NCBI GenBank assembly: GCA_937875785.1
Contig: CALEGV010000072.1
Coordinates: 4,543-68,542 of the forward strand
Direction of reading: 5' to 3'
Length of the DNA: 64,000 bases
Origin: an uncultured Mollicutes bacterium
GTDB lineage: Bacteria > Bacillota_I > Bacilli_A > ML615J-28 > CAG-313
Position 1 is the first letter of the stretch; each line of letters opens with the position of its first letter. Position numbers and translations under genes: made by a program. Below, in pieces: positions 676 to 30,064 of the stretch. A model generated the notes under the pieces. The model saw only the letters and a list, made by a program, of their open reading frames with translations. It did no database searches and was not told the DNA's origin.

Positions 676-685
676 AATATTTATG

Positions 686-1837: not shown

Positions 1838-1846
1838 AATTAAAAA

Positions 1847-2692: not shown

Positions 2693-2694
2693 AC

Positions 2695-4101
2695 CTATTT
2701 CCTCCAATTTTTACAATTTCTATAACAAATGTCTCTTACTATATCGCCTAATAAAGTCATATCCGACGGGAACTCTCCGCTGACTACCTTTTCACCAATA
2801 AACCGGCAAAGCACCCTGCGGAAATATTCATGACGCGAGAAGGAAAGTACACTCCGTGAATCTGTCGTCATACCGACAAAACAGCTCAAAAGTCCATAAG
2901 AAGATAGGGATTGCAATTGTTGCGTCATTCCTTCCAAATGATCATTGTACCACCAGGCAGGACCAAATTGCACTTTTCCTAAAATACCACTGCCCGAATA
3001 TGAACCGGTCAGTGTGGCAAAAACAGCATTGTCCGCCGGATTTAATGTATACAAAATGGTCCGAGGCAACGAATCCTCCTCATTCAATGTGTCTAGGAAG
3101 CAAACCAAACTGTTCACATCGCACGCCGAACCGATCGCTGCATATCCTCCCGCCGGACCAAGCCGTGTCCGCAACTGAGTATTGGTATCCCGTTTGGCCC
3201 CAATATGTAATTGCATGTTCCAGTTTCTCCGTGCATAGCAGCGCCCCATGAACAACAAGACATACGACTGTAATTTCACCGTTTCCGCAGGAGAGATTTC
3301 CCCAATCTGCAACAATTTACCGAATAAGGACGAAGCCTCTCCCGATAAAACCGGTACAAACCTGAAACCCGCATCCAAAGAATGGTCGGCGTACTCGCAT
3401 CCTGCATCAGAAAAAAGGTTCAGACGAATATCTATTGCATTCAGATAATCTTCCAGACACTTTATTTTCATACCTGAAAGCTCCGCTAACTGCGAAACGA
3501 AATCCTTGAAAGAAGGAGTTGTAAAAGAAATTACCGAATCCGCCCGCAGCGAAGGCTTCACTATAATATTCTGAGGTTGTAGGGATGCCTGGCGATGCCA
3601 AGTGAAATCGGCCAATAAATCATCGGAAGTACATAACATTTCCACCCGACATTTCTTCAAGATGTCCAGCATTCCCCATCCCGGCTGCCGGAGGATGTCA
3701 TTGCACACCTTCCATATCTCCCCCGCATTTTCCCGATTCAAGATTTCGTCAATACCGAAAAAGCGTTTTAACTCCAGACATGACCAATGGAACAAAGGAT
3801 TACCAATGGTACGTGTGAATATGGAGGCCCACGTATCATACCGTTCTTTACCGGATATGCCAACCCCTGTAATCATCTCTTCGTCAATACCGGCTATACG
3901 CATCACACGATGTTTGTAAGGATCAGCATGAATCCACAATTCTGCCAAATCAACGAATTTATGATTTTCTGCCAGTTTTCGCGGGTCCAGATGGTTATGA
4001 AAGTCTATAACCGGAAGATTTTCAGCAATCTCATGATAGAGTTGCCTAGAAATACGGGTCGTCAGCAGAAAATCCTCATTAATAAAACTATCCATACTCA
4101 A
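2695..4101 (-). CDS. uxaC: Uronate (glucuronate) isomerase
   Basis: 468 aa. The N-terminus FINEDFLLTTRISRQLYHEIAENLPVIDFHNHLDPRKLAENHKF matches the canonical UxaC N-terminus with its HxH metal motif. Length is typical. Confidence 0.9.
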   Translation of the reverse strand: MSMDSFINEDFLLTTRISRQLYHEIAENLPVIDFHNHLDPRKLAENHKFVDLAELWIHADPYKHRVMRIAGIDEEMITGVGISGKERYDTWASIFTRTIGNPLFHWSCLELKRFFGIDEILNRENAGEIWKVCNDILRQPGWGMLDILKKCRVEMLCTSDDLLADFTWHRQASLQPQNIIVKPSLRADSVISFTTPSFKDFVSQLAELSGMKIKCLEDYLNAIDIRLNLFSDAGCEYADHSLDAGFRFVPVLSGEASSLFGKLLQIGEISPAETVKLQSYVLLFMGRCYARRNWNMQLHIGAKRDTNTQLRTRLGPAGGYAAIGSACDVNSLVCFLDTLNEEDSLPRTILYTLNPADNAVFATLTGSYSGSGILGKVQFGPAWWYNDHLEGMTQQLQSLSSYGLLSCFVGMTTDSRSVLSFSRHEYFRRVLCRFIGEKVVSGEFPSDMTLLGDIVRDICYRNCKNWRK

Positions 4102-4107
4102 GCTGCT

Positions 4108-4836
4108 TTAAAAATAGCCACCATTCTTTACCATCTCCTGAGCAGAAAAGCCTTCATGTACCCAAGTACGCATCTCCCTCTCCTGCTGCTTGATAGCTTC
4201 AGCTCTCAACAATACGTCATAGGCGATGCTACGCGGAATGGCTACCACACCATCCACATCACCAAAAATGACATCTCCCGGCTTTATATAAACTTTTCCA
4301 ATCCTAACCGGTATATTATATCCTGTTATTTTAGTTCTCCCTAAAGAACCGTTCGAACTGCGGTAACGGTAGAATATAGGAAAGTCTTGCTTCAATACCT
4401 GAATCGTATCACGCAGCCCACCGTTGACCACAGCACATCTTGCTCCGCGGGCTATAGCGGAAGCTGTCATTACCTCTCCCCAATGAGCTGCTTCATCTTC
4501 ATTACCTGCGTCCCATACCACACAACAATTTTTCGGCATATCATCCAGCATCTGTGCCCTGATATCCATTTCCCCCTTGACAGTGGGGTCCGGATTACTG
4601 CGAATAGTGAATGCGATGCCTGCCGCACGCATTTCAAACTGCAATGGTAAGATAGTAATCGGCAAGGCTTGATCCATCAATGTGGCTTCACGCAAAACAT
4701 CGTTTACGGCTCCTGTATAAAGATTTTCGTAACGTTCACACAATTCTTGATCTGAAATCGGAAACTCTATACCATCTATCCTATCCAATTTCTCAATCAA
4801 TTTCTCTAACTTCATTAAATTATTGTCCATAATCAT
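4108..4836 (-). CDS. RraA-family protein (class II aldolase/decarboxylase-like, RraA/HMG aldolase fold)
   Basis: 242 aa. The pattern AAHWGEVMTASAIARGARCAVVNGGLRDT...GDVIFGDVDGVVAIP matches the RraA-like family (GxxRD and DxDGVV motifs). Confidence 0.65.
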   Translation of the reverse strand: MIMDNNLMKLEKLIEKLDRIDGIEFPISDQELCERYENLYTGAVNDVLREATLMDQALPITILPLQFEMRAAGIAFTIRSNPDPTVKGEMDIRAQMLDDMPKNCCVVWDAGNEDEAAHWGEVMTASAIARGARCAVVNGGLRDTIQVLKQDFPIFYRYRSSNGSLGRTKITGYNIPVRIGKVYIKPGDVIFGDVDGVVAIPRSIAYDVLLRAEAIKQQEREMRTWVHEGFSAQEMVKNGGYF

Positions 4837-4838
4837 TT

Positions 4839-5786
4839 TTATTCTTCTAATAAACCTTTTAAATATCCTGTCGCAAATATATGTCCCAGCATCTCATACG
4901 CCGGATTTTCTCCTGACTCACCAGCCATAACAGGAGCATGGTCTGTACGGATCACTCCATCAAACCCAATTTCCTTATATGCACGCATGCAGGCTTTCAT
5001 GTCAGTCTGCCCTTCATCATGGAATGTCTCTTCAAAAGCATCTGCATCTCCACGTATATCTCGGAAATGGACAAAGAAAATCTTCCGACCGAAATGTCTT
5101 ATCAAAGAAGGTATGTCCTCATTCATGGCTGCAAAAGAACCTTGGCAAAATGTTATCCCGTTGTAATCGCTGGGATAAAGTTCTAAGGCTTTGTCGAAAT
5201 TCTCTACATTTCTAAAGATACGCGACACTCCCTGCAAGGAAGGTACCGGAGGATCATCCGGATGAAGAGCCAGTTTCACTTTACATGCTTCTGCTACGGG
5301 TAATACCTTATCCATAAAGTATTTATAATTGTCCCATATCTGTATGTCAGTTTGTGTCCCGGCTTCAGTCAACTGCGGGGCTGCCTGCATCAATTTTGAA
5401 TCAAATGCCGTTACCAGTGCCCCACCTCTCCCCTTTTTAGCAAAAGAGGTACGATACCAACCGGATTGGGGCATGAAATTGTAACATAAAACAGGAATAT
5501 CCAAAGCCGCCATATTTCTCAGTACTTGCTTGAATATCTCTATTTCTTCATCCCTGCCTGGCAATCCCAGCTTAATCTTATAATGGGGAGGAGCCGGTTC
5601 AATTACTTCAAGCTTCAGACCTGCATCATTCAAACTCTCTTTAGCATAAAGCAGAGCCTTGAAATCCCACGGTTTCATATAATACCGTTCGGCAGGCAAT
5701 GCCGCTACCGCATATTCTACACCCAATTGGGTTGCAATCTTCCACTTTACCGATGGCAAAGTAGGTAAATACCATGCTAGTTTCAT
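4839..5786 (-). CDS. uxuA: Mannonate dehydratase family protein (short UxuA-like TIM barrel)
   Basis: 315 aa. Contains LALHPDDPP, FVHFRD and IRTDHAP, resembling the UxuA-family metal/active-site segments. It is shorter than E. coli UxuA. Confidence 0.6.
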   Translation of the reverse strand: MKLAWYLPTLPSVKWKIATQLGVEYAVAALPAERYYMKPWDFKALLYAKESLNDAGLKLEVIEPAPPHYKIKLGLPGRDEEIEIFKQVLRNMAALDIPVLCYNFMPQSGWYRTSFAKKGRGGALVTAFDSKLMQAAPQLTEAGTQTDIQIWDNYKYFMDKVLPVAEACKVKLALHPDDPPVPSLQGVSRIFRNVENFDKALELYPSDYNGITFCQGSFAAMNEDIPSLIRHFGRKIFFVHFRDIRGDADAFEETFHDEGQTDMKACMRAYKEIGFDGVIRTDHAPVMAGESGENPAYEMLGHIFATGYLKGLLEE

Positions 5787-5789
5787 TAT

Positions 5790-7454
5790 TTACTTTTTTA
5801 TTTTCAATTTATAAACAACACACAGAGCCACTGCCAGTAAAAGACTCAAAATGCCGGCGCATAAACTCAAATCTCCACCCATAGAACGTAGATTGGGAAT
5901 GCTCATTCCTATAAAAAGCCCGCCGGATACAACAAGAGATACCAACAGTAATATCATCAGTGCTTTAACATATTGCGATGAAATGGAAGGAACCTTTTTA
6001 GGGTCTATATTCACACTCAAGGCATCAAACAGTTCATCCACTTTCACTTTGTCTTTCATATCCATCTGCCCATAAACCGGCAGATAATAAAGAACCAAAC
6101 AAACTATTAACTCGATAAGTGTTGCCATCTCCCAATCCACTTCGGGAAGTGCATTCAAGACAATCCCTACTACAATTCCAGCACTGATCGTAATTATAGC
6201 CGCCTTGGCATTCGGCTTGCGGCTTACAATACCCAATACCAAAGGAATACCTATAGGAATACAGAATATTCCCGTAAACAGTTTATTGGCTTCAAAAGCT
6301 CCTCCAAACCCTTCGATATAGATAGCACCTACTGTAATCAGTGCTCCGATAACCAATGTAGACCAACGAGCCACAACCAGAAGGCGTTTTTCAGCAGCTT
6401 CCGTATTAAACAACCGCTGATATACATCCTTTGTAAAAACACTCGACATAACATTGTACTCGGCATTCAGTGAAGACATAGTTGCCGCAAACATCGAAGA
6501 AAACATGATACCCATAATACCGGCAGGAAGCAAGCGAATGGCAACCGATATATAGGACATCTCCGGATTCTCCAGTTCCGGAACTATTAAAGAAGAGGCA
6601 ACAGCCGGAATGAGGAATATCGGGGTAAACACTAAAAAGAGGATACCCGTCAGAACTCCCATTTTCTTAGCTGCTTTTTCGTCTTTCACACAAAAGAATT
6701 TCTGAATAAATGTCCAGTTCTCATTGTATTTTATCATCGTCATTACATAATAGATTGCCAACCAGAAAAATGCTCCTTTGGGACCATTAAACCACGTCAT
6801 CTTCTCAGGGATCTGTTGATAAAGTCCACCAATACCTCCCACTTCATGTAAGGACACGGGCAGCAGTACACAGGTGATAAGTATTAAGATCACAAACTGT
6901 ACCGTACTCATAATCGTTACAGTCCAGATACCGCCAATAATATTGAACAGCGTAACAATTACACCCGAAATGATGATGGCCCATTCCAATGACAGAGGAG
7001 TGACTACAGTAATGAAAACACCAATAGCATACAACCGCACCATATTGTCTAACAGCCTCACCAGTAATCCTACCCACGTCATTATTTCACGAACAGAGAA
7101 ACTATAACGCTGTTCCAAATATTCGATGGGAGTGACGCAACCAGTCCGCCGCCAACGTCCGCCAAGCCACAGGCTGCCAATGATACATGCCGGTACAGTG
7201 GACCAAAATACCGTAACAGAGACCAACCCGTACTCGTAAGCAATCCCGGCATAAGCCACGAAGACAAACGTACTGAACAATCCCATAAAATTGGTAACGG
7301 TAGCCATCACCCAGGGGATAGTGCCATTTCCCTTGAAATAAGCACCGACATCTTTTATAAACCAACCGAAAGACAGCCCTATCCCCGCCATCAATAATAT
7401 ATAAACACCAATGGCCCAATAATCCAGTTCCTGTAATTGTAACTCCATAGCCAT
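5790..7454 (-). CDS. Sodium:solute symporter family transporter
   Basis: 554 aa, polytopic with about 13-14 hydrophobic segments. The SSF-like N-terminal half (GNGTIPWVMATVTNFMG...) sits inside a sugar-catabolic cluster. Confidence 0.7.
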   Translation of the reverse strand: MAMELQLQELDYWAIGVYILLMAGIGLSFGWFIKDVGAYFKGNGTIPWVMATVTNFMGLFSTFVFVAYAGIAYEYGLVSVTVFWSTVPACIIGSLWLGGRWRRTGCVTPIEYLEQRYSFSVREIMTWVGLLVRLLDNMVRLYAIGVFITVVTPLSLEWAIIISGVIVTLFNIIGGIWTVTIMSTVQFVILILITCVLLPVSLHEVGGIGGLYQQIPEKMTWFNGPKGAFFWLAIYYVMTMIKYNENWTFIQKFFCVKDEKAAKKMGVLTGILFLVFTPIFLIPAVASSLIVPELENPEMSYISVAIRLLPAGIMGIMFSSMFAATMSSLNAEYNVMSSVFTKDVYQRLFNTEAAEKRLLVVARWSTLVIGALITVGAIYIEGFGGAFEANKLFTGIFCIPIGIPLVLGIVSRKPNAKAAIITISAGIVVGIVLNALPEVDWEMATLIELIVCLVLYYLPVYGQMDMKDKVKVDELFDALSVNIDPKKVPSISSQYVKALMILLLVSLVVSGGLFIGMSIPNLRSMGGDLSLCAGILSLLLAVALCVVYKLKIKK

Positions 7455-8908
7455 TATTCATATTTGATTAAGCTCTGGTCAACGACCATAATCGGAGAAT
7501 CATATACCGGAAGATTGCTAAAACAATACTTGTCTCCGTGCTTACTTATATCACCGGCAGGAATCTTATAAACTTTACCAGTCAACAAATCTACCCATAC
7601 AGGATTCTTAAATTTTCCCCCGGCCACTTCCACATCCACCGGGGTAGGCTGATTGAAGTTTGTAGGAGTAGCTTCATCGTACCATATCAGGAATGACTGT
7701 AATTCACTCTTTTCATCTTGATAGGCAAAAAGACTATAAGGATAATCCGTCTTGACCTCAAACCTATGTACATCTACCGAATGCTGTAACAAATCGAACA
7801 CCGAAGCCAGATGTTGTACGGCATAATAAACCACCTTTGCCCGAACAACCTGGTTTTGTTCATTAGTTTCCAACAGGCCTTTTACATTTTTCTTCTTGAT
7901 GGCATCATTACCGCCATAGTTCATATCTGCAATACTGAATATCCCGGTAGCAATATCCCGCCCGTGATCACCGAGCATTCTTCTCAAAGCCCATTTGGCC
8001 TGCGAGACTTCCGACCATTGATAAGCTCCTAAAGCTCCACCCATATATCCTTTGGATGGTGCACCGTTCTCACCTTGCCACAATTTGATATGATCTGAAT
8101 ATTTTTGTATAACTTGCCGCATCTTCTCAACCTTCGGATACACATCTTCCGGCCGGAACACATACTGGTGATACGAAATCCAATCAAAAAGTTCCAATTT
8201 CCCGCGTTCCTTAAAATCCTGCATACATTTCTCCAGAAATTCTGCATCGGCAAAGGCCAATGCCAAAGCAGCGATCTTAGCATCCGGCTCTATTCGCTTT
8301 ATAATTTCTGCCGTACGAATATTCAGGTCCGTCAGACTCTTATAATCCTTGATCTGTTCTTTATTGATATCCGGCTCATTCCAGATTTCCCATTCATAAA
8401 CCTTACCTTTATAATGAAGAGCCATAGCCTCCACCCATCTGTTCCAAGCAGTTTTTCCCTCTTCGGAAGTAGGCCAACCTCCTTTCAGATAGGGGGTTCC
8501 CCCACCTTCATAGATGGGGTTCCCATAAGATGCCTGTAACCAGATTTTTATTCCACGTCCAACTGCATCATTTATGATGGAATCCAACCAGGCAAAATCA
8601 TAAACTCCCTTTATCTTTTCTGTTTTGGCCCATCCGGCTTGCAACCGTATCTTTTTAAGACCCAAAGGAACGATATATTCTTTATACTGATGGTAGTCGG
8701 CATAATCCCTATCCAGCACCTCGCATCCTAAAGTCAGATCGTTTTTTACCTCATGAATACTTTTAGGAGATAGTACACCGATCGCTTCATACGGTACGGC
8801 AAGATTCGTTTTCACCCGTCCTTCACTAACCGGTGTATGGGTACATGAGCTTACAACCCAAAGCAGCAAGAAATGACATAAAACATTTATTTGATTCCTC
8901 ATTTTCAA
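7454..8908 (-). CDS. Clan GH-A (beta/alpha)8 glycoside hydrolase lipoprotein (GH39/GH5-like)
   Basis: 484 aa with a lipoprotein signal (LLLWVVSSC). Acid/base motif EIWNEPD; candidate nucleophile segment LWQGENGAP. The exact GH family cannot be assigned by eye. Confidence 0.55.
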   Translation of the reverse strand: MKMRNQINVLCHFLLLWVVSSCTHTPVSEGRVKTNLAVPYEAIGVLSPKSIHEVKNDLTLGCEVLDRDYADYHQYKEYIVPLGLKKIRLQAGWAKTEKIKGVYDFAWLDSIINDAVGRGIKIWLQASYGNPIYEGGGTPYLKGGWPTSEEGKTAWNRWVEAMALHYKGKVYEWEIWNEPDINKEQIKDYKSLTDLNIRTAEIIKRIEPDAKIAALALAFADAEFLEKCMQDFKERGKLELFDWISYHQYVFRPEDVYPKVEKMRQVIQKYSDHIKLWQGENGAPSKGYMGGALGAYQWSEVSQAKWALRRMLGDHGRDIATGIFSIADMNYGGNDAIKKKNVKGLLETNEQNQVVRAKVVYYAVQHLASVFDLLQHSVDVHRFEVKTDYPYSLFAYQDEKSELQSFLIWYDEATPTNFNQPTPVDVEVAGGKFKNPVWVDLLTGKVYKIPAGDISKHGDKYCFSNLPVYDSPIMVVDQSLIKYE

Positions 8909-8969
8909 TTCCTTTTAAAAAATTATAGTTAGAAACTGTATTATTCTTGTTTATTATATCAGTAGTTCC

Positions 8970-10646
8970 TTAGTTCTTATAACCTGGATTCTGTTCCAAT
9001 ACAGCATCTTTATTGGCTTCTATTGCACTGTAAGGTATCGGAAACAGTTCATGATAATCTTCCACACGAGGTCCGTTGAGCGTATTGTATTTACGAACAC
9101 GTTCTACATACTTGCCCAATCGTCCTAACGTAATTCTGCGGAATTCCTCATATACCAATTCGCGTGCACGCTCATCCAGAATATAGTCTATGGTGACCTC
9201 CGATGCAACTACTTCAGATGTATGAGCACGGTTCCTTACTTCATTGATATCGTTTGCTGCCTTTTCTTTGTCTCCTTTCATTAAAAAAGCCTCTGCCCGT
9301 AGCAGATAGGTTTCAGCCAAACGTAGCATATATTGGTCCAGATAAGTAGCACCGGCAGTCGATTTCAGTGTTTTCAGTGCCGGATCGGCATACAGGGCTT
9401 CAGGATGTTCACCCGGAGTTGTAATCTTAGTTGGCCACGGATACCAACGCCAAGACTGTTCTTCCAAAAGTTTACTCTTCGTTTCAAGAGCAATAATACT
9501 TTTACCATAATACTTGGAAGTAGGCAAATCATAATAAGCATCACGTACCACATTGTATTTGGAATTACGCATATCATTGCTAAAATCGTCGCCCCATACC
9601 TCATACAACCACCAATGGGTATTTGACATATTGGAAACTCCACGCCCCCCCACATTGGCATCCGAACGACCATTCGAAGAAAGGAAAGCTTTCTTTCCTT
9701 CCGGATCAGTACATGAATATGTCACTGGTGCGGCAAACCGTTCCAGATAATAGGGACGATAAGAAGTTGAAGTCAGATAACCACCTTCTACATCCGGCTC
9801 CATCTGAATTACCCATAATGCTTCCGTATTACCCGAAGTTTTTCGGTTCTGATTTTTCCTTCTGAATAGATCCCAATAGACATCTCCTTCTTCCGATTTG
9901 TGAGACCCGAACCTGACTTTCATCAAACCTGTATTGGGATTATCAATCACTTCAGAAGCTAAACGAATAGCATCATCGTAGAGTCCCAACGATATACAGG
10001 TCTCAGCAAGGTAATGTTTTGCCACTAGATTGGAAATCTTTCCATCAACTACAGTATGAATGTCAGGAAGTACAGTTGTTGCTTCCAGGAAGTCATCATA
10101 CATAGCTTTCAATACTTCCTCTTTCGAGTTCCGGGTGAAGTCCGTCTTTGGAGAGACATTTTCCTCAAGCACTAACGGAACACCACCGAAAATATAAACC
10201 AACGTACGATAACCGAATGCACGGAAAAATTTGGCCTCGGCAGCCACTTGGGATTTTTGTTCCGCGTTCAGTGAACTACCTTCTATACGACTGATGATGG
10301 TATTGGCATTATTAATCAGTTTATACTCACGATCCCATACGTCTGCCACACCAGCTTGCTGAGGAGTGAGCCAGTCTTTAAGATTGCCCATGAAATTATT
10401 ATTGTCACGCGCATTCTTGGCTACATCTGTTTCCTGAAAGAAGACGAAATCACTATTATAGAAATTCGCACGTACTTTCGCATACAAACCTGTTAAGGCT
10501 GTTTCATAATCGGCATATGTATTATAGGCATTCTCCGGACTCAGGAAGTCCAGCGGCTTCTCTTCCAGAAAGCTGCTTTCGTTACAAGAGAAAACAAAAC
10601 ATGAGAATAAAAAGGCAATTCCTGCATTAAAAATATTCTGTCTCAT
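8970..10646 (-). CDS. SusD/RagB family nutrient-binding outer-membrane lipoprotein
   Basis: 558 aa with a lipobox (FVFSC). TPR-like SusD hallmarks are present (RAEAFLMKGDKEKAANDINEVRNRA, ERARELVYEEFR). It lies immediately downstream of the SusC-like gene. Confidence 0.9.
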   Translation of the reverse strand: MRQNIFNAGIAFLFSCFVFSCNESSFLEEKPLDFLSPENAYNTYADYETALTGLYAKVRANFYNSDFVFFQETDVAKNARDNNNFMGNLKDWLTPQQAGVADVWDREYKLINNANTIISRIEGSSLNAEQKSQVAAEAKFFRAFGYRTLVYIFGGVPLVLEENVSPKTDFTRNSKEEVLKAMYDDFLEATTVLPDIHTVVDGKISNLVAKHYLAETCISLGLYDDAIRLASEVIDNPNTGLMKVRFGSHKSEEGDVYWDLFRRKNQNRKTSGNTEALWVIQMEPDVEGGYLTSTSYRPYYLERFAAPVTYSCTDPEGKKAFLSSNGRSDANVGGRGVSNMSNTHWWLYEVWGDDFSNDMRNSKYNVVRDAYYDLPTSKYYGKSIIALETKSKLLEEQSWRWYPWPTKITTPGEHPEALYADPALKTLKSTAGATYLDQYMLRLAETYLLRAEAFLMKGDKEKAANDINEVRNRAHTSEVVASEVTIDYILDERARELVYEEFRRITLGRLGKYVERVRKYNTLNGPRVEDYHELFPIPYSAIEANKDAVLEQNPGYKN

Positions 10647-10657
10647 AATTCAATCTG

Positions 10658-13288
10658 TTAAAAAGTTAAATCTATACCAAAAGCATAAGTACGCATTACG
10701 GGATAAGAGTCTGTGGTGAAACCAATACCGGCTTCAGGATCCCAACCATCCCAACCTGTAAAAGTCAAAAGGTTCTGTCCGCTAATAAAAAGCCTCAGAT
10801 TACTCACACCTAACTTTTTAGTCCATCGCTGATCAAAGTTATAGGATAACGATACATCTTGCAAACGGACAAAGCTGCGATTTTGCATCCGATTCGTATC
10901 TACGGTAGGAGATAGCCAAGCTGTTGCAAACTTAGCATTTGGATTTCTTGGTGACCAATAATCATAGGCAGTCAGCCAACTCAGGTTCTCGGCATTACCT
11001 ATCGACTTTCCAATATAATCAGGTTTGGCAATCTTCGACCGATATCCGTTCTTACCTCCCTGAATGGTATTGATGAAAAAACGTAATTCAAACCCTTTAT
11101 AGCTAAAATCATTGGAAATACCCATCATGTAAGCCGGTTCTTTATGCCCTAGAATCACCCTGTCTTCACCAGCCGTAATCTCTCCATCGCCATTCTGATC
11201 CTTAATTTTATAGGTTCCGGGATAAAAACCCTTCATAATAGTACCATTCTCTTTATCTGCCAACTGCCAGATACCTTCCACTTCATAGTCATAAATGGTT
11301 CCCAACGATTCTCCGATAAACAGTCCGCTGGCTACCAAGTCATCTTCTTTACCGTCTCCATCAGTATCCTGTCCCAGTAAAGAAACCACCTTGTTCTTAT
11401 TCGTTGAAAAATTCAGCCGGACATTCCATTGAAAATCTTTTGTTTTCACAGGAGTACCACCGAGTACTATTTCCAAACCTGTATTCTGTAACTTGCCCAC
11501 ATTGCTGCGTACACTGGAAAATCCGGTCATCGTCGGAATAATAACATCCCATAACAGATTCTTTGTGGTAGCTCGGTAAAAGTCTATACTTCCAGTCAGC
11601 CTCTCCTTGAAAAAGGAAAAGTCAATACCAACATTATACTCAGCTGTCGTCTCCCACTTTAAATCTTTATTGGACATGCGCATAACAGTAGAACCGATGG
11701 ACGTACTTGCACCATCGCCAAAAACATATTTCGAGCCTGCATTCAGTTCAACCTTTGCTAAGGAACTGTAACGTGAAGTTTGGTTACCCGTCACACCAAA
11801 ACTAGCTCTGAGCTTGAGATTATCCATAAATTCCGCTTCGGACAAGAACGCTTCACGAGACAATACCCAACCCAAACCAACAGAAGGAAACAGACCGAAC
11901 TTGTGATTCTCGGCAAAGCCACTAAAACCATCACGACGTAATGTAGCTGTTAACAAATATTTGCTATCATAATTATAAGATGTACGAAGCATTTGATAAA
12001 GGTTGCTCTCCTTATAAGCTGACGAACGTATGGTTTGTATGATAGCCTGTCCCAAATCATTATAACCAGTTACCGTACTAGTATATTGTTGTCCTTTTGC
12101 CAGGGTATTGTCATAGGCCTGCCTGCTAGCACCATACACAAACGTTGCATTAATAGCATGCTTACCAAAAGAATTGGTATAATTTACAATATTATCCAGC
12201 AACCATACAGATGAATTATCGTGCTGCTTTGATGCTTCTCCTTGTTGACTGGCCTCATACCGACTATAATTATATAAATTCTTGGCATCAAGCGTATAAT
12301 TATAATTCAAGCGATAGGTCAATCCTTTGATCCAAGGTATACTAACCAGTCCATAAACGGTTGTATTTATCTGATGACGCTTGTCTGAATTTTCGACCAT
12401 ATATTCCAAGAAAGGATTCATAGTTAAAGTTCCATTCGGATTGGTAATCCACTCACCATCCGCATCCTTGGGAGTCACTACGGCCGGCATACGAATAAGA
12501 GCATTCATATTGGGGGACTCTCCGGAATAGTCCAAAACGGAGAAAAAAGTATTAGTACCCACCTTCAGCCAAGATGTAGCTTGCACATCAATATTAGCTC
12601 TGAATGTAGTACGCTTATATTTGTCATTCTTTACAACTCCTCTTTGATTGGTCCAACTACCGGAAAGGAAATAAGAAACATGTTCGCTACCACCATTGAT
12701 ATTCACCATATTAGTAAATAAATGCCCAGTCTGCATAGCTTCATCCCACCAGTTAAAATCTGTACCATTCTCTATTCCATCCAACTGTTGCACATTCAGT
12801 TGTGACTTGGAAAAATCCCAGTCCGGATTTGGAACTAAATAACCGGATTCCTTGGTATAGGCTGACTCATATTCGATATCACGTACTTTCTGCATCCATT
12901 CTTCCCGGTTCAATGGCCGGTAATCGACTGTCGGATTACTGAACGCCCAACTACCTGAATATGATATCTTCGGTTTTTGAGCTCTTTTACCTTTTTTAGA
13001 TGTAATCATCAATACACCATTAGCTGCTTTCGCACCATAAACAGCCTTACTGCTCGCATCTTTCAATATATCAATGGATTCAATATCACTCGGATTAATA
13101 TCAGAAATGCGCCCACCATATATAATTCCATCCAATATAATTAAAGGAGAAGTACTACCATTAATAGTGGTTTGTCCACGCACTCCGATTGAAGGATCTT
13201 CACCAGCTGAATTGGTCTGCCCTATTTGCAATCCAGCCACCGTCCCATGCAAAGATTGCATAATGCTTGTATTCGGCGAATCTTTCAT
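10658..13288 (-). CDS. SusC-like TonB-dependent receptor, 5'-truncated fragment (plug plus beta-barrel only)
   Basis: This is the C-terminal roughly 876 aa of the 1146-aa ORF. Plug motifs SLHGTVAGLQI and IGVRGQTTINGSTSPLIILDG are present, and the barrel ends in the aromatic terminus GIDLTF. The signal peptide, CarboxypepD_reg domain and TonB box are missing. The upper boundary is the compositional breakpoint, accurate to about 15 nt. Confidence 0.85.
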   Translation of the reverse strand: MKDSPNTSIMQSLHGTVAGLQIGQTNSAGEDPSIGVRGQTTINGSTSPLIILDGIIYGGRISDINPSDIESIDILKDASSKAVYGAKAANGVLMITSKKGKRAQKPKISYSGSWAFSNPTVDYRPLNREEWMQKVRDIEYESAYTKESGYLVPNPDWDFSKSQLNVQQLDGIENGTDFNWWDEAMQTGHLFTNMVNINGGSEHVSYFLSGSWTNQRGVVKNDKYKRTTFRANIDVQATSWLKVGTNTFFSVLDYSGESPNMNALIRMPAVVTPKDADGEWITNPNGTLTMNPFLEYMVENSDKRHQINTTVYGLVSIPWIKGLTYRLNYNYTLDAKNLYNYSRYEASQQGEASKQHDNSSVWLLDNIVNYTNSFGKHAINATFVYGASRQAYDNTLAKGQQYTSTVTGYNDLGQAIIQTIRSSAYKESNLYQMLRTSYNYDSKYLLTATLRRDGFSGFAENHKFGLFPSVGLGWVLSREAFLSEAEFMDNLKLRASFGVTGNQTSRYSSLAKVELNAGSKYVFGDGASTSIGSTVMRMSNKDLKWETTAEYNVGIDFSFFKERLTGSIDFYRATTKNLLWDVIIPTMTGFSSVRSNVGKLQNTGLEIVLGGTPVKTKDFQWNVRLNFSTNKNKVVSLLGQDTDGDGKEDDLVASGLFIGESLGTIYDYEVEGIWQLADKENGTIMKGFYPGTYKIKDQNGDGEITAGEDRVILGHKEPAYMMGISNDFSYKGFELRFFINTIQGGKNGYRSKIAKPDYIGKSIGNAENLSWLTAYDYWSPRNPNAKFATAWLSPTVDTNRMQNRSFVRLQDVSLSYNFDQRWTKKLGVSNLRLFISGQNLLTFTGWDGWDPEAGIGFTTDSYPVMRTYAFGIDLTF

Positions 13289-14098
13289 TACATTCAAATC
13301 CGCTTTTCTATATTTTTTGTATAATTTATTTACAGATTTACCAAAGTTGCTAACTGGATCTTCAGCTCCTGAAAAAATGAAAATAGAAATATGGGGATTT
13401 ATTTTTTTTATATTTTTCATTTTAAAGCTTTGCTTCAAAGCTCTTGAAATAGAGTTATATGTTGTATCTGAAACTGCTGCACCACATAAAGGATCAAGTT
13501 CATAGTTTTTAATATTTTCTGGATTTTTAGAAAGCCAATTGAATGATGATGTTTCTAGGAATTTTTTTTGAAAATTGCCAAAGGTTAGATTATGAATGAA
13601 TTTAGTTGATGTTCGAGCATCATTTTTCTTGACAGTAATATTTGTCAAAATTTTTAATAAACTATATCGAAAATCTCCTACATCTGTACCTGAAAAAATT
13701 ACTTTATCGAAGTCATCAGGATATCTTTGAATATAAGTTTGTGAGGAAATAGAACCCATACTATGAGAAAAAAGAATTTTTTGTTTGTCGAAATCATCTT
13801 GAAAAGAATCGCGTACAAGTTTTAATCCTTTAACAACCGCTTCAATGAAATCGTATGTTTCGATTACACCCAAATCGTTGAGTTCTTCTACTGATTCACC
13901 ATGGTTATAGTGATCAAAAGCAATCACTGTATAGCCATTGTTGCTTAAAAAATCAGCAAATGCATCATATCTTGACACATGCTCTGATAAACCATGTGCA
14001 ATTTGAACTGTTCCTTTATGTTCTACTTTGGGATTGCTCCAACGATATCCAACTAGATTTGATTTTTCATCAAACTTAATAGTCAAACGTTCTTTCAT
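13289..14098 (-). CDS. Alpha/beta hydrolase (lysophospholipase/monoacylglycerol-lipase type), 3'-truncated fragment
   Basis: This is the N-terminal 270 aa of the same 1146-aa ORF. It has the oxyanion HGLSEH, the nucleophile elbow SHSMGS and the acid residue in SGAEDPV. The C-terminal catalytic His segment is missing. Its codon usage is AT-rich like the rest of the right-hand part. Confidence 0.75.
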
Positions 14099-14101
14099 AT
14101 T

Positions 14102-15298
14102 TTATAATTCCTCCATCATTGATTTTCCAATAGCGGGTTTTTTTACATTAAAATTATCTGAAATCGTTGCTGCAACATTTGCAAAAGTCTCAAAATCAGG
14201 TAAAAGTTTACCATTTAACTTACGACTATATGCAATAAAAGGAACCATCTCACGAGTATGATCGGTACCGTGATGAATAGGATCATTCCCATGATCTGCA
14301 ACAATAATAACTAAATCTTCTTCATGCATTTTTTTGATGAACTGTTTGAGGTCTTGATCAAATTCTTCAATGGCCATTTTATAACCTGGTAAATTTCTTC
14401 TATGTCCATATAGTGCATCAAAATCTACAAGATTGGTGAAACATAAACCTGTAAACTCTTGGTCCAAATATGCTGTTGTTTTTTCCATTCCATCATGATT
14501 AGAAATTGTACGTGTGGCTTTCGTAATTCCATATCCATCGAAAATATCATTAATTTTACCAATGGCAATGACGTCAAAACCATCTTCTGATAAATAATTC
14601 AAAACAGTTTTGTCAAATGGTTTCAAGGCATAATCATGACGATTTGTTGTTCTGGTAAAATTCTCTTTATTCGTACCAACAAATGGTCTAGCTATAATGC
14701 GACCTACTTGCCACTCTTTGTGCTCAGTTGTCAATTTTCGAACATATGAGCAAATCTTATAAAGTTCATCAAGTGGAATGACTGCTTCGTTTGCAGCAAT
14801 CTGAAGAACAGAATCTGCTGATGTATAAACAATCAAGGCACCAGTTTTCAGTTGCTCTTCACCTAATTGCTTGATAATCTCCGTACCACTTGCACTGATA
14901 TTTCCGATTACTTTTCTTCCAGAAAAATTCTCAATTTTATCAATCAATTCTTTAGGAAAACCGGTTTCAGTAAATGACGGAAAGGGATGAATGACCTTTA
15001 GTCCCATTAGTTCAAAATGACCAGTAAGTGTGTCTTTGCCTATACTTTGCTCAGTCATTCTGGCAACAACACCTAAAGGGGAGGAATGTATTGGCATTTT
15101 ATTATTTGGACAAATAAGCCCAATTCCTAATTCAGTTAAAGTAGGAACATTGAATGTTTCACTATAATGAGCGATATGACCAAATGTATTTGCCCCCTCA
15201 TCATTATAATTTTTAGCATCTGGGGCATTGCCTATTCCCATTGAGTCAGCGACAATAACAAAAATTCTTTTATACTTGTGATATCTATTTTTTTCCAT
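14102..15298 (-). CDS. deoB: Phosphopentomutase
   Basis: 398 aa. Contains FVIVADSMGIG and ADHGNDP...GTDHTRE, typical of DeoB/Drm. Confidence 0.9.
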   Translation of the reverse strand: MEKNRYHKYKRIFVIVADSMGIGNAPDAKNYNDEGANTFGHIAHYSETFNVPTLTELGIGLICPNNKMPIHSSPLGVVARMTEQSIGKDTLTGHFELMGLKVIHPFPSFTETGFPKELIDKIENFSGRKVIGNISASGTEIIKQLGEEQLKTGALIVYTSADSVLQIAANEAVIPLDELYKICSYVRKLTTEHKEWQVGRIIARPFVGTNKENFTRTTNRHDYALKPFDKTVLNYLSEDGFDVIAIGKINDIFDGYGITKATRTISNHDGMEKTTAYLDQEFTGLCFTNLVDFDALYGHRRNLPGYKMAIEEFDQDLKQFIKKMHEEDLVIIVADHGNDPIHHGTDHTREMVPFIAYSRKLNGKLLPDFETFANVAATISDNFNVKKPAIGKSMMEEL

Positions 15299-16184
15299 GT
15301 GGATGTGCTCCTTTATAAATTTCTTTTAATTTTTGATTTGACAAATGCGTGTAAATTTGTGTTGTAGAAATATCTTCATGACCTAACATTTCTTGAATCA
15401 AACGTAAATCCGTTCCTGCTTCTAATAAATGGGTCGCAAAAGAATGCCTCAAAGTATGTGGCGATATATCTTTTGTGATACCTGCTAATTGGCATTGTTC
15501 TTTGATGATTTTAAAAAAACTTTGACGCGAAATGCTATCACCTAAGTGATTGATAAAAACATATCCTTGGTCTTTAGATGGTTTCATTAGTTTAGGTCTA
15601 GCTTCAATAATATATTCACGTAGCACTTTATTGGCATAATCATTAATAGGAACAATTCGTTCTTTGTTCCCTTTTCCTTTAACCGAAATCATTTTGTTTG
15701 TTAAATGTAAATCTTGTAATTTTAGGCTAACAAGTTCAGAAACACGCAAACCCGTTGCATACATCACTTCAATCATTGCTTGATTCCGCTGATGTATTGG
15801 TGTATCCGCATGTAATGTGTTTAGTAAATTTAGTACTTCATCTACGGACAAAACTGTCGGTAATTTTTTATCTAATTTCGGAGAACTTAAGTTTATAGCA
15901 GGATTAATTTTACTTCTTCTTTCCATGAAAAGAAATTTATGAAAACTTTTAATTGCGCTTAAAGCTCTACTGCTTGATGTAGGACTATATCCAAGTTTCT
16001 TCAAATAAACCAAATATTTTTGAATATCTGCAGTTGTGATATTGGCAACATCAGTAATATTTAACTTCTCTGATAGATAATATACATAGTTCTGTAAATC
16101 GCTGACGTAGGATTTTACAGTATTTTCACTTTTCATCTTCTCTGAGATGAGGTAATGTTGATATTCTGTAATGATTTCTTCCAT
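15285..16184 (-). CDS. xerD: Tyrosine site-specific recombinase XerD (chromosome dimer resolution)
   Basis: 299 aa. Contains ATGLRVSEL and HTLRHSFATHLLEAGTDLRLIQEMLGHEDISTTQIYTH (R-H-R-Y catalytic set). The spoIIM-xerD-deoB synteny is as in Bacillus. Confidence 0.8.
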   Translation of the reverse strand: MEEIITEYQHYLISEKMKSENTVKSYVSDLQNYVYYLSEKLNITDVANITTADIQKYLVYLKKLGYSPTSSSRALSAIKSFHKFLFMERRSKINPAINLSSPKLDKKLPTVLSVDEVLNLLNTLHADTPIHQRNQAMIEVMYATGLRVSELVSLKLQDLHLTNKMISVKGKGNKERIVPINDYANKVLREYIIEARPKLMKPSKDQGYVFINHLGDSISRQSFFKIIKEQCQLAGITKDISPHTLRHSFATHLLEAGTDLRLIQEMLGHEDISTTQIYTHLSNQKLKEIYKGAHPHGKK

Positions 16185-16187
16185 TTT

Positions 16188-16715
16188 TTATGTCTCCAGT
16201 GCATTAAATTTTATACAAACCAATAGTGCATATATAACAATAAGAATTGTAGCAATCAAAATGACATTAAAATAATTGCCCCCTTTAATCAGTCTATTTT
16301 TCCCCTCAAAAGATAGGGATATGCTTTTATATCCAACATATAGTAGAATTGGTAAGATGATGACAATTTCTAATATTCCATATTTTAAAAAATGTATGAT
16401 GCCAAAAACGCCAGTACTTTTTAAGCAAATTCCAAAAGTGACCCCAGTCATAAAGCTTTTAAAAAAGACAATAAAATAGGAAATAATAAAGCCAAAAGCC
16501 ATTAAACCTAAGAGCCATAATAAAAAGAAATACCAATAATTTAAAGTAAAGGCATTTATAAAGATTTGAACGTAAGATTTATCTAGTCGTTCAACACTAT
16601 AATATTCTTTGGCTAATTTATTTGTAGATAATATTCCAATTAAAAATCCAAAAATAATAGTCATCAAAATTGTTATAAAAATAAAGTTTGGTTTTTTCAA
16701 ATTGTGCTTTTTCAA
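16188..16715 (-). CDS. spoIIM: Stage II sporulation protein M-like membrane protein
   Basis: 175 aa with 4-5 TM segments. The central FFKSFMTGVTFG and ILEIVIILPILLYVG segments resemble SpoIIM. It sits next to xerD as in B. subtilis. Confidence 0.55.
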   Translation of the reverse strand: MKKHNLKKPNFIFITILMTIIFGFLIGILSTNKLAKEYYSVERLDKSYVQIFINAFTLNYWYFFLLWLLGLMAFGFIISYFIVFFKSFMTGVTFGICLKSTGVFGIIHFLKYGILEIVIILPILLYVGYKSISLSFEGKNRLIKGGNYFNVILIATILIVIYALLVCIKFNALET

Positions 16716-16730
16716 AACATCATCCCTTTT

Positions 16731-17849
16731 TTAAATAATTTTTAAGATGATGTGATTTGTAATATAAACATATTTTTGCGGTATAAATAAGTAATTTTTT
16801 TCTTCAACTAATAATCCATCTTCAATTAAGGAGTATATGGATTGAAATTTACATTTGATGTCAATATGAAAAAGTTGATAAAACTTTTTTTCATCAATAC
16901 CCTCTTTTTTCCTTAATTCTAAAATAACAGTTTCTTTCATTTTATCTTCAATGGACAATTTGATTTCTTCTTGTAAAACAACTACATTTTTCTGAATCCC
17001 ATCAAGATAATTTTGCATATGAGTTGTTGTTGTTGATCGAATAGAATGATAATATGAACTTGCTCCAAGTCCTAATGCTATATACTCTTCACAATTCCAA
17101 TATATGAGATTATGGAGCGATTCATACCCTTTTTTTGAAAAGTTGCTTGTTTCATAACGATTAAACCCTCCTTTTTCTAATGTATGACAGATATGATGGT
17201 ACATCTTTGCTTCCAATTTTTCATCAATACACTCTAGTTTATGTGCTTTTTGTAAGTGACTAAATATAGTGTGTTCTTCTAAAATCAGTGAATAATACGA
17301 TATATGTTGGATGTCCAATTCTAATAATTTTTTTAAATCAGATTCAACATCAGAAAAAGATTGACTTGGTATTGCAAACATCATATCAATATTCACATTT
17401 GTAATTTTAACTGATTGTAAAAGAGAAATTTTTTCTTTTATCTCCTCAATTGTTATGTACCGATTGATTACTCTTTGTAGTTTCTTTTGAAAAGTCTGTA
17501 CACCAATGCTTACTCTATTCACGTGATATTTTGCCAATATGGTACATAATTTAGGAGTAATATCTAAGGGGTTACATTCAAACGTGAATTCTTTCATACT
17601 TTTCAAATCAATATATTTGCTCAATGATTGAAATAGTTTCTCCAAATCATCAATTTGTAATGAAGATGGTGTACCACCACCAATATATAAGGTATCGAAT
17701 GCATATGCATCTAATTTTTTTATTTTCATCTCCTCTAAAAGAGCTTTTAAATAGGTTTGTTTCACCTTTTCCGAAGATACTCTTTTACAAAAATCGCAAT
17801 AGGGACAAATACTATTACAGAAAGGAATATGAATATATAAACCAAGCAT
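16731..17849 (-). CDS. hemW: Radical SAM heme chaperone HemW (HemN-like, oxygen-independent coproporphyrinogen oxidase family)
   Basis: 372 aa. N-terminal LYIHIPFCNSICPYCDF contains the CxxxCxxC motif. It lies downstream of lepA, as is widely conserved. Confidence 0.85.
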   Translation of the reverse strand: MLGLYIHIPFCNSICPYCDFCKRVSSEKVKQTYLKALLEEMKIKKLDAYAFDTLYIGGGTPSSLQIDDLEKLFQSLSKYIDLKSMKEFTFECNPLDITPKLCTILAKYHVNRVSIGVQTFQKKLQRVINRYITIEEIKEKISLLQSVKITNVNIDMMFAIPSQSFSDVESDLKKLLELDIQHISYYSLILEEHTIFSHLQKAHKLECIDEKLEAKMYHHICHTLEKGGFNRYETSNFSKKGYESLHNLIYWNCEEYIALGLGASSYYHSIRSTTTTHMQNYLDGIQKNVVVLQEEIKLSIEDKMKETVILELRKKEGIDEKKFYQLFHIDIKCKFQSIYSLIEDGLLVEEKNYLFIPQKYVYITNHIILKII

Positions 17850-17924
17850 GCTATCACCAATAGAATTATATCATAAAATAAAAATTTTTTATAAAAAAAA
17901 CAACTTTTAAGTTTATAAAAGTTG

Positions 17925-19763
17925 TTAATTATTTTCATCATCAAGTTTAAGTACGGCCAAAAATGCATCTTGAGGAATTTCGACACTTCCAACTTGTTTC
18001 ATTCGCTTTTTTCCTTCTTTTTGTTTTTCAAGTAATTTTTTCTTACGGCTAACATCTCCACCATAACATTTCGCAAGAACATCCTTACGTAAAGCAGCGA
18101 CATTTTCTCTCGCTATAATTTTGCTATTCACAGCTGCTTGTACAGGTATTTCAAATTGTTGACGAGGAATCAATCCTCTCAATTTTTGAGTTAAAGCACG
18201 ACCTCGTCGATATGCAAAATCTTTATGAACAATCACACTCAATGCATCTACCTTTTCCCCATTTAAAAGAATATCTAGTTTGACAAGTTTTGATTCACGA
18301 TAACTTGAAATAGTATAATCCAATGAAGCATATCCTTTAGTAGAAGATTTTAATCGATCAAAAAAATCATACACAATTTCTGATAGAGGGATATCATAGC
18401 GAATACATACTCGTGTTTCTTCAATATAATCCATCCCTACGAAACTTCCTCGTTTATTTTGACAAAGCTCCATAATAGAACCAACATATTCAGTGGGAAC
18501 CATAATACTTGCTTCTACATAAGGTTCTTCAATTCTTTTAATTAGTGTAAAATCAGGAAGTTCACTAGGATTGTCAATGCTTATCATATTTCCATCAGTC
18601 AAGTATACGTGGTACTCAACACTTGGAGCAGTTGCTATAATGTCAATTTTAAATTCTCTTTCAATACGTTCTTGGATAACATCCATATGAAGAAGTCCTA
18701 AAAAACCTGTCCGAAAGCCAAAACCAAGTGCTTGTGAGGTTTCAGGTTCGAAAAGAAGAGATGCGTCATTTAATCTCAATTTTTCAAGTGCTTCTTTTAG
18801 TTCTTCATATTTGTTTGGCTCAATTGGATATAAGCCACAAAACACCATAGAATTCATTTGTCGATATCCAGGCAATTGATGTACTGAAGGATTTTCAAGT
18901 GTCGTAATTGTATCGCCAACATGAACGTTTTGTACTTCTTTGATACTACATGCAATCCATCCAACATCTCCAGTTGTTAGATATTCTCTTTTCTTTTCCT
19001 TGGGTGTATTGACACCAATTTCTATTACCTCATAGATTGCACCCGTAGCCATCATCTTGATATGATCACCAATTCGAATTGTTCCATTGATAATGCGAAT
19101 AGTTGGAATCACACCTCGATAAGCATCATAATAGGAATCAAAGATGAGTGCTTGAACTTCACCTTCAGGATTACCTTGAGGGGATGGAATATCAGAAACG
19201 ATACGTTCAAGTAATTCATCAATTCCAATTCCTTCTTTAGCACTAGCTAAAACAGCATTGCTTGCATCAAGTCCTATTACATCCTCCACTTCCTTTTGAA
19301 CTTTTTTAGGATCTGCTGCAGGAAGATCTATCTTGTTAATTAAAGGAATAATTTCTAAATTATTATCAATGGCAAGATATACATTTGCAAGTGTTTGTGC
19401 CTCAATTCCTTGAGCAGCATCGACCACCAAAATAGCACCCTCACATGCTGCAAGACTTCTTGACACTTCATAGGTAAAATCAACATGACCTGGAGTATCT
19501 ATTAAATGGAAAATATAGGTTTTTCCATCCTTTGCTTGATAGTTTAACTCTACCGCATTTAGTTTTATGGTTATTCCTCGTTCTCGTTCTAAATCCATTG
19601 AATCAAGAATTTGTTCTTTCATTTCTCTAACTTCTAAAGTTTTGGTTTTTTCTAAAATACGATCTGCTAAAGTACTTTTGCCATGATCAATATGTGCAAT
19701 GATAGAAAAATTTCTAATTCTGTTTTGTCTTTCTAATAATTCTTTTTTATCTGGAACATGCAT
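17925..19763 (-). CDS. lepA: Translation elongation factor 4 (LepA)
   Basis: Contains [20 protein letters not shown] and DTPGHVDF. The C-terminus has the LepA-specific domain. Start moved to MHVPDKK (19763), 10 nt after GAGGA; the first ATG abuts the SD. Confidence 0.93.
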
Positions 19764-19872
19764 TGTTTTCATTCCTCTTTTGTATTCTTCATCGCGTTTG
19801 AATGGGGAAATGCTTGTCTTTTTTTATTTCGATTGCTCACAGAAAGCATTTTAATAAACGCTTATATGAATA

Positions 19873-19901
19873 ATTATACATTAAATTGATTTGTTTAGCA
19901 A
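19873..19901 (-). promoter_or_regulatory. Sigma-A type promoter upstream of lepA
   Basis: Minus strand reads TTGCTA, 17 nt, TATAAT, with an extended -10 (TGTATAAT). It lies about 100 nt upstream of the lepA start. Confidence 0.5.
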
Positions 19902-19911
19902 GTAAAATATG

Positions 19912-20244
19912 TTAAAGTGTCAATTTATTTTTAGAACGTAAATCAATTCTTTCAATAGGAACATGATATTTATTGGCAACTTCTATCAATTTTTCCTCAT
20001 ATGATGGATTTCCATACTTGATTGATTTTGCATCAACACTCATAATTAATTCCTCAAGATGAACCATTGTATTGCTGATAAGGCCATTATCAAGTAAATA
20101 CCCAAAAGGAATGATAATATCCACTTCATCTTTGATGACTTTTACATTACACATCTTGTTGATAACCATTGTACGACTTGTAAAATGATGTTTCCTGATA
20201 AATTCTTGTAATTTTGGTGACATATTTCCAATTATCAATTTCAT
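19912..20244 (-). CDS. Hypothetical cytoplasmic protein (110 aa)
   Basis: Intact ORF with a strong RBS (GGGGGGGTGATTAACT-ATG). It has its own upstream terminator and intergenic spacers. I recognise no family. Confidence 0.5.
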   Translation of the reverse strand: MKLIIGNMSPKLQEFIRKHHFTSRTMVINKMCNVKVIKDEVDIIIPFGYLLDNGLISNTMVHLEELIMSVDAKSIKYGNPSYEEKLIEVANKYHVPIERIDLRSKNKLTL

Positions 20245-20295
20245 AGTTAATCACCCCCCCTATATTAATCTATGAAAAAAAATGGAATAATGTAA

Positions 20296-20331
20296 AGGAA
20301 AAACCTTGTAATGCGATTTACATTACAAGGT
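20296..20331 (-). terminator. Rho-independent terminator after nrdG
   Basis: Stem ACCTTGTAATG / CATTACAAGGT (20303-20313 / 20321-20331) with a 7-nt loop, followed on the minus strand by TTTTTCC. Confidence 0.7.
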
Positions 20332-20834
20332 CAAAATTCTTGAATAACAATTGATTTTGTTGCTAAAGTTTTTTTCAAATTGATAATTCTCTGATTAGAA
20401 CTACCTCTAAAAACAAGAGAAATATCACGCTTGCTTTGTACAAAGGGTCCATCAATTAAGTAATCAGCTATTTCTAATATTTTGTTAATTTCAGCATCCT
20501 TTTTGCTGATTAACTCTTCAAAAGTATATCCTGTATATATTAAAATATTTTTTTGAGGAAATTCCTTTTTAAAATGGACTGTGAGGTCTAAAATTGCTGA
20601 TTTCTGAGCAAAAGGTTCCCCACCACTAATTGTTAAACCAGTCATATACGGATAATGTCTTATGTTTTCTAATATACTGCTTGTTGTCGAAAGAGTTCCT
20701 GCACGAAAATCATGTGTTTCAGGATTATGACAGCCCTTGCAATGATGGGGACATCCTTGAGTGAAGATTACATATCTAATCCCTGGCCCATCAACAATAG
20801 ACTCACTAATTTCACCTGCAATTCTAATATTCAT
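20331..20834 (-). CDS. nrdG: Anaerobic ribonucleoside-triphosphate reductase activating protein
   Basis: 167 aa. Contains DGPGIRYVIFTQGCPHHCKGCHNPETH (radical-SAM cluster motif). It overlaps the end of nrdD. Confidence 0.9.
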   Translation of the reverse strand: MNIRIAGEISESIVDGPGIRYVIFTQGCPHHCKGCHNPETHDFRAGTLSTTSSILENIRHYPYMTGLTISGGEPFAQKSAILDLTVHFKKEFPQKNILIYTGYTFEELISKKDAEINKILEIADYLIDGPFVQSKRDISLVFRGSSNQRIINLKKTLATKSIVIQEF

Positions 20835-23160: not shown

Positions 23161-23318
23161 AATATCCTCCTTTAAATTTATTTTTTTTTGATTAAAAGTG
23201 TTAACATTATACCACAAAAAATAATATCTCCATTGCAAAATGCAACAAAATTTTTATAAGATATTTTGCTTGCAAAATAGATGAATTTGTGCTATTATTG
23301 CCCAAAAGAGAGGTCTTT

Positions 23319-23831: not shown

Positions 23832-23869
23832 GAATAGACTAATTTGGTTTAGTTTATTCTCATTTTTTT
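23830..23869. terminator. Bidirectional rho-independent terminator between the convergent 170-aa gene and proS
   Basis: Stem GAGAATAGACTAA / TTAGTTTATTCTC with one G.U pair, flanked by an A-run on the left and a T-run on the right. Confidence 0.7.
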
Positions 23870-23876
23870 AGTAAAT

Positions 23877-25583: not shown

Positions 25584-25612
25584 TATATTCATCCTTCCTT
25601 AAATCGCTGATA

Positions 25613-25621
25613 ATTATATCA
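25613..25621 (-). promoter_or_regulatory. Extended -10 promoter element upstream of proS
   Basis: Minus strand reads TGATATAAT about 12 nt upstream of the SD. The -35 is weak (TAGAAA). This implies a very short leader. Confidence 0.35.
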
Positions 25622-26825: not shown

Positions 26826-26842
26826 AAAAAATCAATAGAATT

Positions 26843-26889
26843 ATAAAAAGCCAAAACAGGGGAATTTTCCTTACATTTATCCCTGTTTT
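26843..26889 (-). terminator. Rho-independent terminator after pmbA
   Basis: Stem AAAACAGGG / CCCTGTTTT (26853-26861 / 26881-26889) with a 19-nt loop. On the minus strand it is followed by GGCTTTTTAT. Confidence 0.5.
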
Positions 26890-30062: not shown

Positions 30063-30064
30063 AA

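Follow-up and report, generated by a model that had tools for sequence, protein, structure and literature searches.

A 64,000-nt stretch of DNA assigned to an uncultured Mollicutes bacterium (assembly GCA_937875785.1, contig CALEGV010000072.1, positions 4,543–68,542; hereafter the window) carries an open reading frame (ORF) of 1146 amino acids that fuses an alpha/beta hydrolase to a SusC protein. A first-pass annotation, made from the sequence alone, had placed a switch from Bacteroidales to Firmicutes DNA inside this ORF and proposed that the contig is chimeric. That proposal is supported by the two collinear, nearly identical parents that we identified for the two sides of the window, by an overlap of 22 nt between their alignments, and by the presence of the fusion protein on a single contig. 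We estimate a probability of about 90% that the window is a chimeric metagenome contig produced by a mis-join in a small-k (~21) de Bruijn graph, at a 22-mer that the two genomes share by chance. The hydrolase–SusC fusion gene is almost certainly an assembly artifact and not biology.

Two parental genomes meet in the window

The annotation had described mid-GC DNA on the left and AT-rich DNA on the right, and had suggested sliding-window G+C and tetranucleotide profiles as a check. In 1-kb windows, G+C was 0.40–0.46 over positions 1–13000 and 0.26–0.36 over positions 13001–64000, and in 100-nt windows it fell from 0.43–0.48 to 0.27–0.30 between 13200 and 13350. The cumulative maximum of a tetranucleotide log-likelihood ratio, trained on positions 1–12500 versus 14501–64000, placed the change point at 13277; elsewhere in the window the ratio flipped sign only in three blips of 100–200 nt each. 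The compositional switch is thus real, sharp and far beyond chance. Expression signals and gene content changed with it, again as annotated. Of 35 ORF starts on the right, 12 were preceded by a Shine–Dalgarno core of at least 5 nt, but none of eight on the left; these counts are underestimates because they were made on longest-ORF starts. The right side encodes the sporulation proteins SpoIIM, SpoIVA, YqfD, YabP, SpoVIF and SpoIIIAH. Throughout, we judged the factual statements of the annotation to hold.

The annotation had also proposed separate BLAST searches of the two sides. With megablast, window positions 1–13306 matched eight Bacteroides intestinalis loci at 99.2–99.7% identity, without gaps in seven of them. 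Among the eight is the complete chromosome CP064940.1, which a paper about B. intestinalis as the host of crAss001 cites, and the matching Bacteroides proteins likewise carry the source name Bacteroides intestinalis. The segment found only in this species (1..13284; eight independent contigs) is part of a polysaccharide-utilization locus (PUL). On the other side, positions 13285–25301 matched Bacilli loci at 99.83%, and the whole of 13285–64000 was tiled at 99.4–100% by independent assemblies (L001–L008 and L019–L028), with only 57071–58383 falling between the Bacilli loci compared. The segment specific to this uncultured low-GC Bacilli species of the human gut (13307..64000) contains housekeeping and sporulation genes; the nearest named relatives of its LepA, at ~80% identity, are labeled 'MAG: Bacilli bacterium'. 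The whole window is therefore collinear with independent assemblies apart from a single discontinuity at 13285–13306, and none of the compared alignments crosses 13270–13320.

The genes that flank the fused ORF have their native partners intact in other assemblies. Downstream lies the SusD-family gene (8970..10646, minus strand) that is the natural partner of the truncated SusC; its exact protein is present in 3694 blocks of a public collection and adjoins a SusC in the 25 contigs that we read, with an intact SusC of 1003 amino acids in L009–L015. Upstream lies the phosphopentomutase gene deoB (14102..15298, minus strand), the native neighbor of the hydrolase. Its exact protein was found on 11 contigs that we read, all from human-gut samples, and in 11 of 11 either an intact hydrolase or the end of the contig is seen. 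An intact hydrolase of 305 amino acids follows deoB in L001, L002, L004 and L007, the contigs that extend far enough.

The parents share exactly 22 nt at the joint

We compared the joint base by base with seven Bacteroides loci and two Bacilli loci. The left and right parental alignments overlap by exactly 22 nt, a sequence (TCATTACATTCAAATCCGCTTT; 13285..13306) that is present in both parents, and beyond it each parent mismatches the window at most positions of the other's side. The breakpoint, annotated within 13250–13330 and as a switch within about 20 nt, is thereby placed in an ambiguous stretch measured at 22 nt. This microhomology was overlooked in the annotation, being invisible without the parental sequences. 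Its coding (minus) strand, AAAGCGGATTTGAATGTAATGA (codons AAA GCG GAT TTG AAT GTA ATG A), encodes KADLNVM in frame 0 of both genes, as residues 265–271 of the hydrolase and 122–128 of SusC. Because the 22-mer lies in the same frame in both genes, the 1146-amino-acid ORF reads through the joint. A search of the GTDB species representatives with the 22-mer returned a single match, in one Bacteroides metagenome-assembled genome (MAG); the GTDB representative of the Bacilli parent either lacks the exact 22-mer or is absent.

How often two such genomes share a string of this length was estimated from maximal exact matches, which we counted in a comparison of 21.7 kb from Bacteroides with 59.9 kb from Bacilli, the joint being left out. 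Match counts dropped geometrically, and the effective match probability per base was 0.294. For genomes of 5.79 Mb versus 1.5–3 Mb, extrapolation gives 11–22 common matches with a length of 22 nt or more, 0.3–0.6 with 25 nt or more and ~0 with 31 nt or more; from base composition alone, ~5 matches of 22 nt or more would be expected. Several common 22-nt strings are thus expected by chance and the 22-mer is not surprising, and it therefore carries no weight as evidence of recombination. The joint is just above 21 nt, the length at which a small-k de Bruijn graph would mis-join; the shared 22 nt are compatible with k=21.

The fused ORF lacks parts of both parents

The read-through ORF (10658..14098, minus strand) is present as annotated and spans the switch. 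Parental comparison shows it to consist of hydrolase residues 1–271 and SusC residues 122–1003, with the sequence ...KKYRKADLNVMKDSPNTSIMQSLHG... across the joint and with no amino acid differences from the intact parents in either part; each gene is interrupted inside a domain.

The SusC-derived part (10658..13306, minus strand) lacks the first 121 residues, which in the parent run from the signal peptide through the N-terminal extension (CarbopepD_reg) and the VVVIGYG region into the Plug domain; the annotation had already noted the loss of signal peptide and extension. In Pfam searches of the fused ORF the Plug match begins at position 16 of 107 and CarbopepD_reg is absent. The TIGR04056 profile matches the fused ORF over positions 104–981 of 981 only (704 bits; cutoff 368), compared with positions 3–981 in the intact SusC parent (855 bits). 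With positions 1–103 missing, the fused ORF is not a full-length SusC/RagA protein from signal peptide to barrel by TIGR04056.

The alpha/beta hydrolase part (13285..14098, minus strand; Hydrolase_4, of the lysophospholipase/monoglyceride-lipase type) lacks its last 34 residues, and the match to Hydrolase_4 (PF12146) is cut at profile position 221 of 239. The HSMGS motif and the EDP region are retained. The lost tail holds a YP..RHE motif that aligns with the RHE of PDB entries 5o7g and 5olu, and the histidine of this motif, judging by its position in the family, would be the catalytic one. On that assignment, the fused ORF has no complete Ser-Asp-His triad of a PF12146 hydrolase, the RHE histidine lying in the missing tail, in line with the annotation's remark that the catalytic-histidine tail is gone. 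Neither half of the fused ORF could work like its parent. In a Gram-positive-type organism, moreover, there is no outer membrane into which a SusC barrel could insert.

The fusion protein (P0181) bridges two unrelated families in a public clustering at 90% identity, where the 305-amino-acid hydrolase (P0017) and the 1003-amino-acid SusC (P0016) stand in one 408-member cluster although they share only KADLNVM.

The junction occurs on a single contig

The annotation had named the same junction in an independent assembly as a finding that would refute a chimera. In a collection of 15 billion proteins that includes NCBI and ENA sources, the exact 1146-amino-acid protein was found on one contig (71,224 nt; NCBI/ENA), presumably the window's own source. 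Contigs with the intact parents were more numerous, at least 1000 for SusC and 19 for the hydrolase. A 48-mer spanning the junction had no match among the GTDB species representatives, in the JGI metagenome contigs or in IMG/VR. Among 167 cluster representatives retrieved with a 207-amino-acid junction query, none spans the joint and none pairs Hydrolase_4 with Plug; the near-identical matches each cover one half only. Across the contig and protein collections searched, the same junction was thus found in no independent assembly and in no second strain or sample.

No mobile element marks the joint

An alternative to an artifact is a genuine, very recent inter-phylum transfer, in which at least 13.3 kb of B. 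intestinalis DNA entered a Bacilli chromosome through the 22-nt microhomology and disrupted the hydrolase gene. Recombination of the illegitimate or short-homology kind can use short stretches of identity, the two parents are cleanly identical over 22 nt at the joint, and the sample sources show both organisms to be inhabitants of the human gut. We nevertheless consider such a transfer extremely unlikely, given that a 22-mer is expected by chance and that the junction is confined to one contig and missing from every other collection searched. The Bacteroides part is 99.2–99.7% identical to free-living strains, with divergence only at strain level, no amelioration and all genes intact, and the DNA at the joint is an ordinary chromosomal PUL cut in the middle of a gene, not a mobile element. 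If true, the transfer would be a direct snapshot of the movement of non-mobile DNA (a PUL) between phyla before any amelioration.

The joint itself also lacks the marks of an acquired island. A repeat search around it returned only short, imperfect pairs at chance level, with no significant direct or inverted repeat. As the annotation had stated, there is no integrase, transposase or att site there, and we found no target duplication. Likewise, neither a border integrase, transposase or relaxase nor flanking repeats of the kind that delimit horizontally acquired islands were seen at the joint. We considered one nearby gene, encoding a tyrosine recombinase of the xerD type (15285..16184, minus strand; named 'tyrosine recombinase xerD' by one source), as a possible element integrase. 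It was rejected because it lies in the same place beside deoB in all intact contigs that reach it, a conserved chromosomal synteny. Bacteroides sequence continues from the joint to window position 1, and no second border, at which host sequence would resume, appears within these 13.3 kb; of the 71,224-nt contig, as much as 7.2 kb lie beyond the window. Finally, scans of the 64-kb window for tRNA genes and for Rfam families at gathering score were empty and gave no rRNA or tRNA marker or integration hot-spot.

A graph mis-join probably created the joint

Of the artifacts that the annotation had listed, assembly mis-join stands, while scaffolding, binning and deliberate concatenation do not. A scaffolding error was rejected since the joint contains no run of Ns, and a binning error since the joint lies within a single continuous contig. 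Concatenation after assembly, deliberate or accidental (by a scaffolder, in file handling or as a synthetic test sequence), would explain why the joint is abrupt and why neither side is adapted to the other. Arbitrary joining, however, would not hit an exact 22-nt overlap common to both parents, there is no N gap, and the identical 1146-amino-acid protein already stands in NCBI/ENA gene calls from the 71,224-nt contig. We therefore rejected arbitrary concatenation, and regard any form of this explanation as vanishingly improbable.

The true continuation of the Bacilli genome offers a reason why an assembler might leave it. Beyond the intact hydrolase lies an extremely AT-rich spacer of 835 nt with no gene called (L001 12117–12929). 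A 46-nt sequence is directly repeated in it without mismatch, the two copies being 161 nt apart and the first beginning at the stop codon of the hydrolase gene; a third copy is 72% identical. Independent short-read contigs stop at the same place: L004 and L007 end 28 nt past the hydrolase stop codon and L006 ends 12 nt before it, and one HMP scaffold ends just after deoB. Given these contig ends at the 46-nt repeats, the true continuation past the 22-mer would extend only ~110–140 nt before the graph branches.

A review describes the steps that a mis-join here would require. K-mers common to different genomes link their graphs and give chimeric contigs, and assemblers remove dead ends and reuse small-k contigs as hypothetical reads (PMC7299287). 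On the Bacilli path, the continuation past the 22-mer would meet the perfect 46-nt repeats about 110 nt on and form a short dead end, a stub that the assembler would probably clip. The shared k-mer node would then retain the Bacteroides path as its sole exit, and the resulting small-k contig could be carried into later rounds of k and finally into the bin deposited at NCBI/ENA. The in-frame 22-mer would then yield the call of a 1146-amino-acid hydrolase–SusC 'fusion', a protein presumably made by no cell.

A chimera formed in vitro, by template switching or ligation at the microhomology during library preparation or amplification (polymerase chain reaction or multiple displacement amplification) and then faithfully assembled, would give the same end result as a graph error. 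Template switching does favor short identical stretches. We regard this origin as very unlikely, since one chimeric molecule will seldom prevail over the true paths of both genomes, since an overlap of 22 nt, just above a common minimum k, arises more simply through the graph, and since the repeat-induced contig breaks beside the joint point to a cause in assembly. Even if it were true, the fusion would still be an artifact.

Several points weigh against a graph mis-join. The case is built from assembled sequences and covers 64,000 nt of the 71,224-nt contig. The tip-clipping scenario was deduced from the parental sequence and not observed. For a clean mis-join, the Bacteroides path that leads into the 22-mer, the 5' part of SusC, must also have dropped out. 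Real recombination, too, might in principle make use of an identity of 22 nt.

If the joint is a graph mis-join, it has no biological significance, being no real feature of any organism, but it does have consequences for public data. With this contig, its bin includes at least 13 kb of foreign PUL genes from Bacteroides, a contamination of public databases, and the in-frame gene call could pass for a credible multidomain protein. Through the fusion, the hydrolase of the Bacilli species and the SusC of B. intestinalis already share one protein cluster at 90% identity. Clean and resolved to the base, the case illustrates how a chance cross-phylum 22-mer can lead to a chimeric contig, and it is suited as a negative control in scans for inter-phylum transfer or for new domain fusions.

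Other features of the two parental segments

The PUL to which the Bacteroides segment belongs (window 1–10646; L009–L015, 11745–21591) comprises SusC/SusD, a GH39-like protein, an SSF transporter, UxuA, an RraA-like protein, UxaC, an SDR protein, a GH88 protein, BNR_4 and rhaM, and an IclR-type regulator lies upstream of SusC in the intact PUL locus. This gene content suggests a uronic-acid-containing glycan as the substrate. In one further B. intestinalis locus (L016 6977–9989, on the 5.19-Mb contig_1950 of ERZ28750258), a 1-nt indel relative to the window splits SusC into 793 and 192 amino acids, which is either a sequencing indel or a real frameshift.

Two strain-variable places were noted in the Bacilli segment. 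The first lies between the ProRS gene and the tldD/pmbA pair (window ~25600–26900), where three other strains (L026–L028, ~11400–21300) diverge from the window at 26800. These strains carry PAPS_reduct, DUF4007, BrxC/PglY_N, Aminotran_5 and helicase genes there, a set that looks like an Ssp-type phosphorothioation defense island. L025, which is collinear with the window at this site, has only a 94-amino-acid T4SS-DNA_transf (TraG/VirD4-like) fragment (11597–11881). The second is a protein of ~1190 amino acids with Big_2/Flg_new repeats (window 30065–33649; L025–L027 ~4620–8185), which is 1187 or 1124 amino acids long or split into 848 and 343; the alignment of its gene with L027 has a gap at window 31822–31989.

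Many Bacilli have a T-box leader at GlyRS-like and ProRS-like genes. None was called upstream of the GlyRS-like (48912..50336) or ProRS-like (23877..25592) gene in the window.

Comparison with known chimeras, transfers and fusions

The window shows the features of an inter-species chimeric contig: distinct collinear parents, a shared sequence that chance can explain and a junction that independent assemblies do not reproduce. Like the inter-species translocations scored by MetaQUAST and metaMIC, it has flanks that map to the genomes of different species and a break at one point only, and its contig is publicly deposited. Inter-species translocations are reported in the metaMIC preprint as the commonest misassembly in CAMI data (bioRxiv 10.1101/2021.06.22.449514). 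Those cases mostly involve related species with long conserved regions such as rRNA or mobile elements, whereas here the parents belong to different phyla, the shared sequence is a chance 22-mer inside two unrelated coding genes, and the joint is in frame.

The contig is also like the MAG contamination flagged by GUNC or CheckM, in that genes from two distant lineages occur on it. What those tools usually pick up are whole contigs placed in the wrong bin, but here the mixture lies within one contig; filters on whole-contig composition or coverage may pass it, since ~80% of the window is Bacilli.

With microhomology-mediated illegitimate recombination and horizontal transfer, the joint shares a short exact identity between otherwise unrelated DNAs. 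Unlike a real transfer, it comes without recurrence in the collections searched, mobile-element genes, a second border within 13.3 kb or sequence divergence. At the protein level, the fused ORF recalls natural multidomain TonB-dependent transporters, which bear an extra N-terminal domain before the plug and barrel. In those proteins the extension is placed after the signal peptide and before the TonB box; here, by contrast, a cytoplasmic-type hydrolase without its histidine replaces the signal peptide, the extension and the first 15 positions of Plug.

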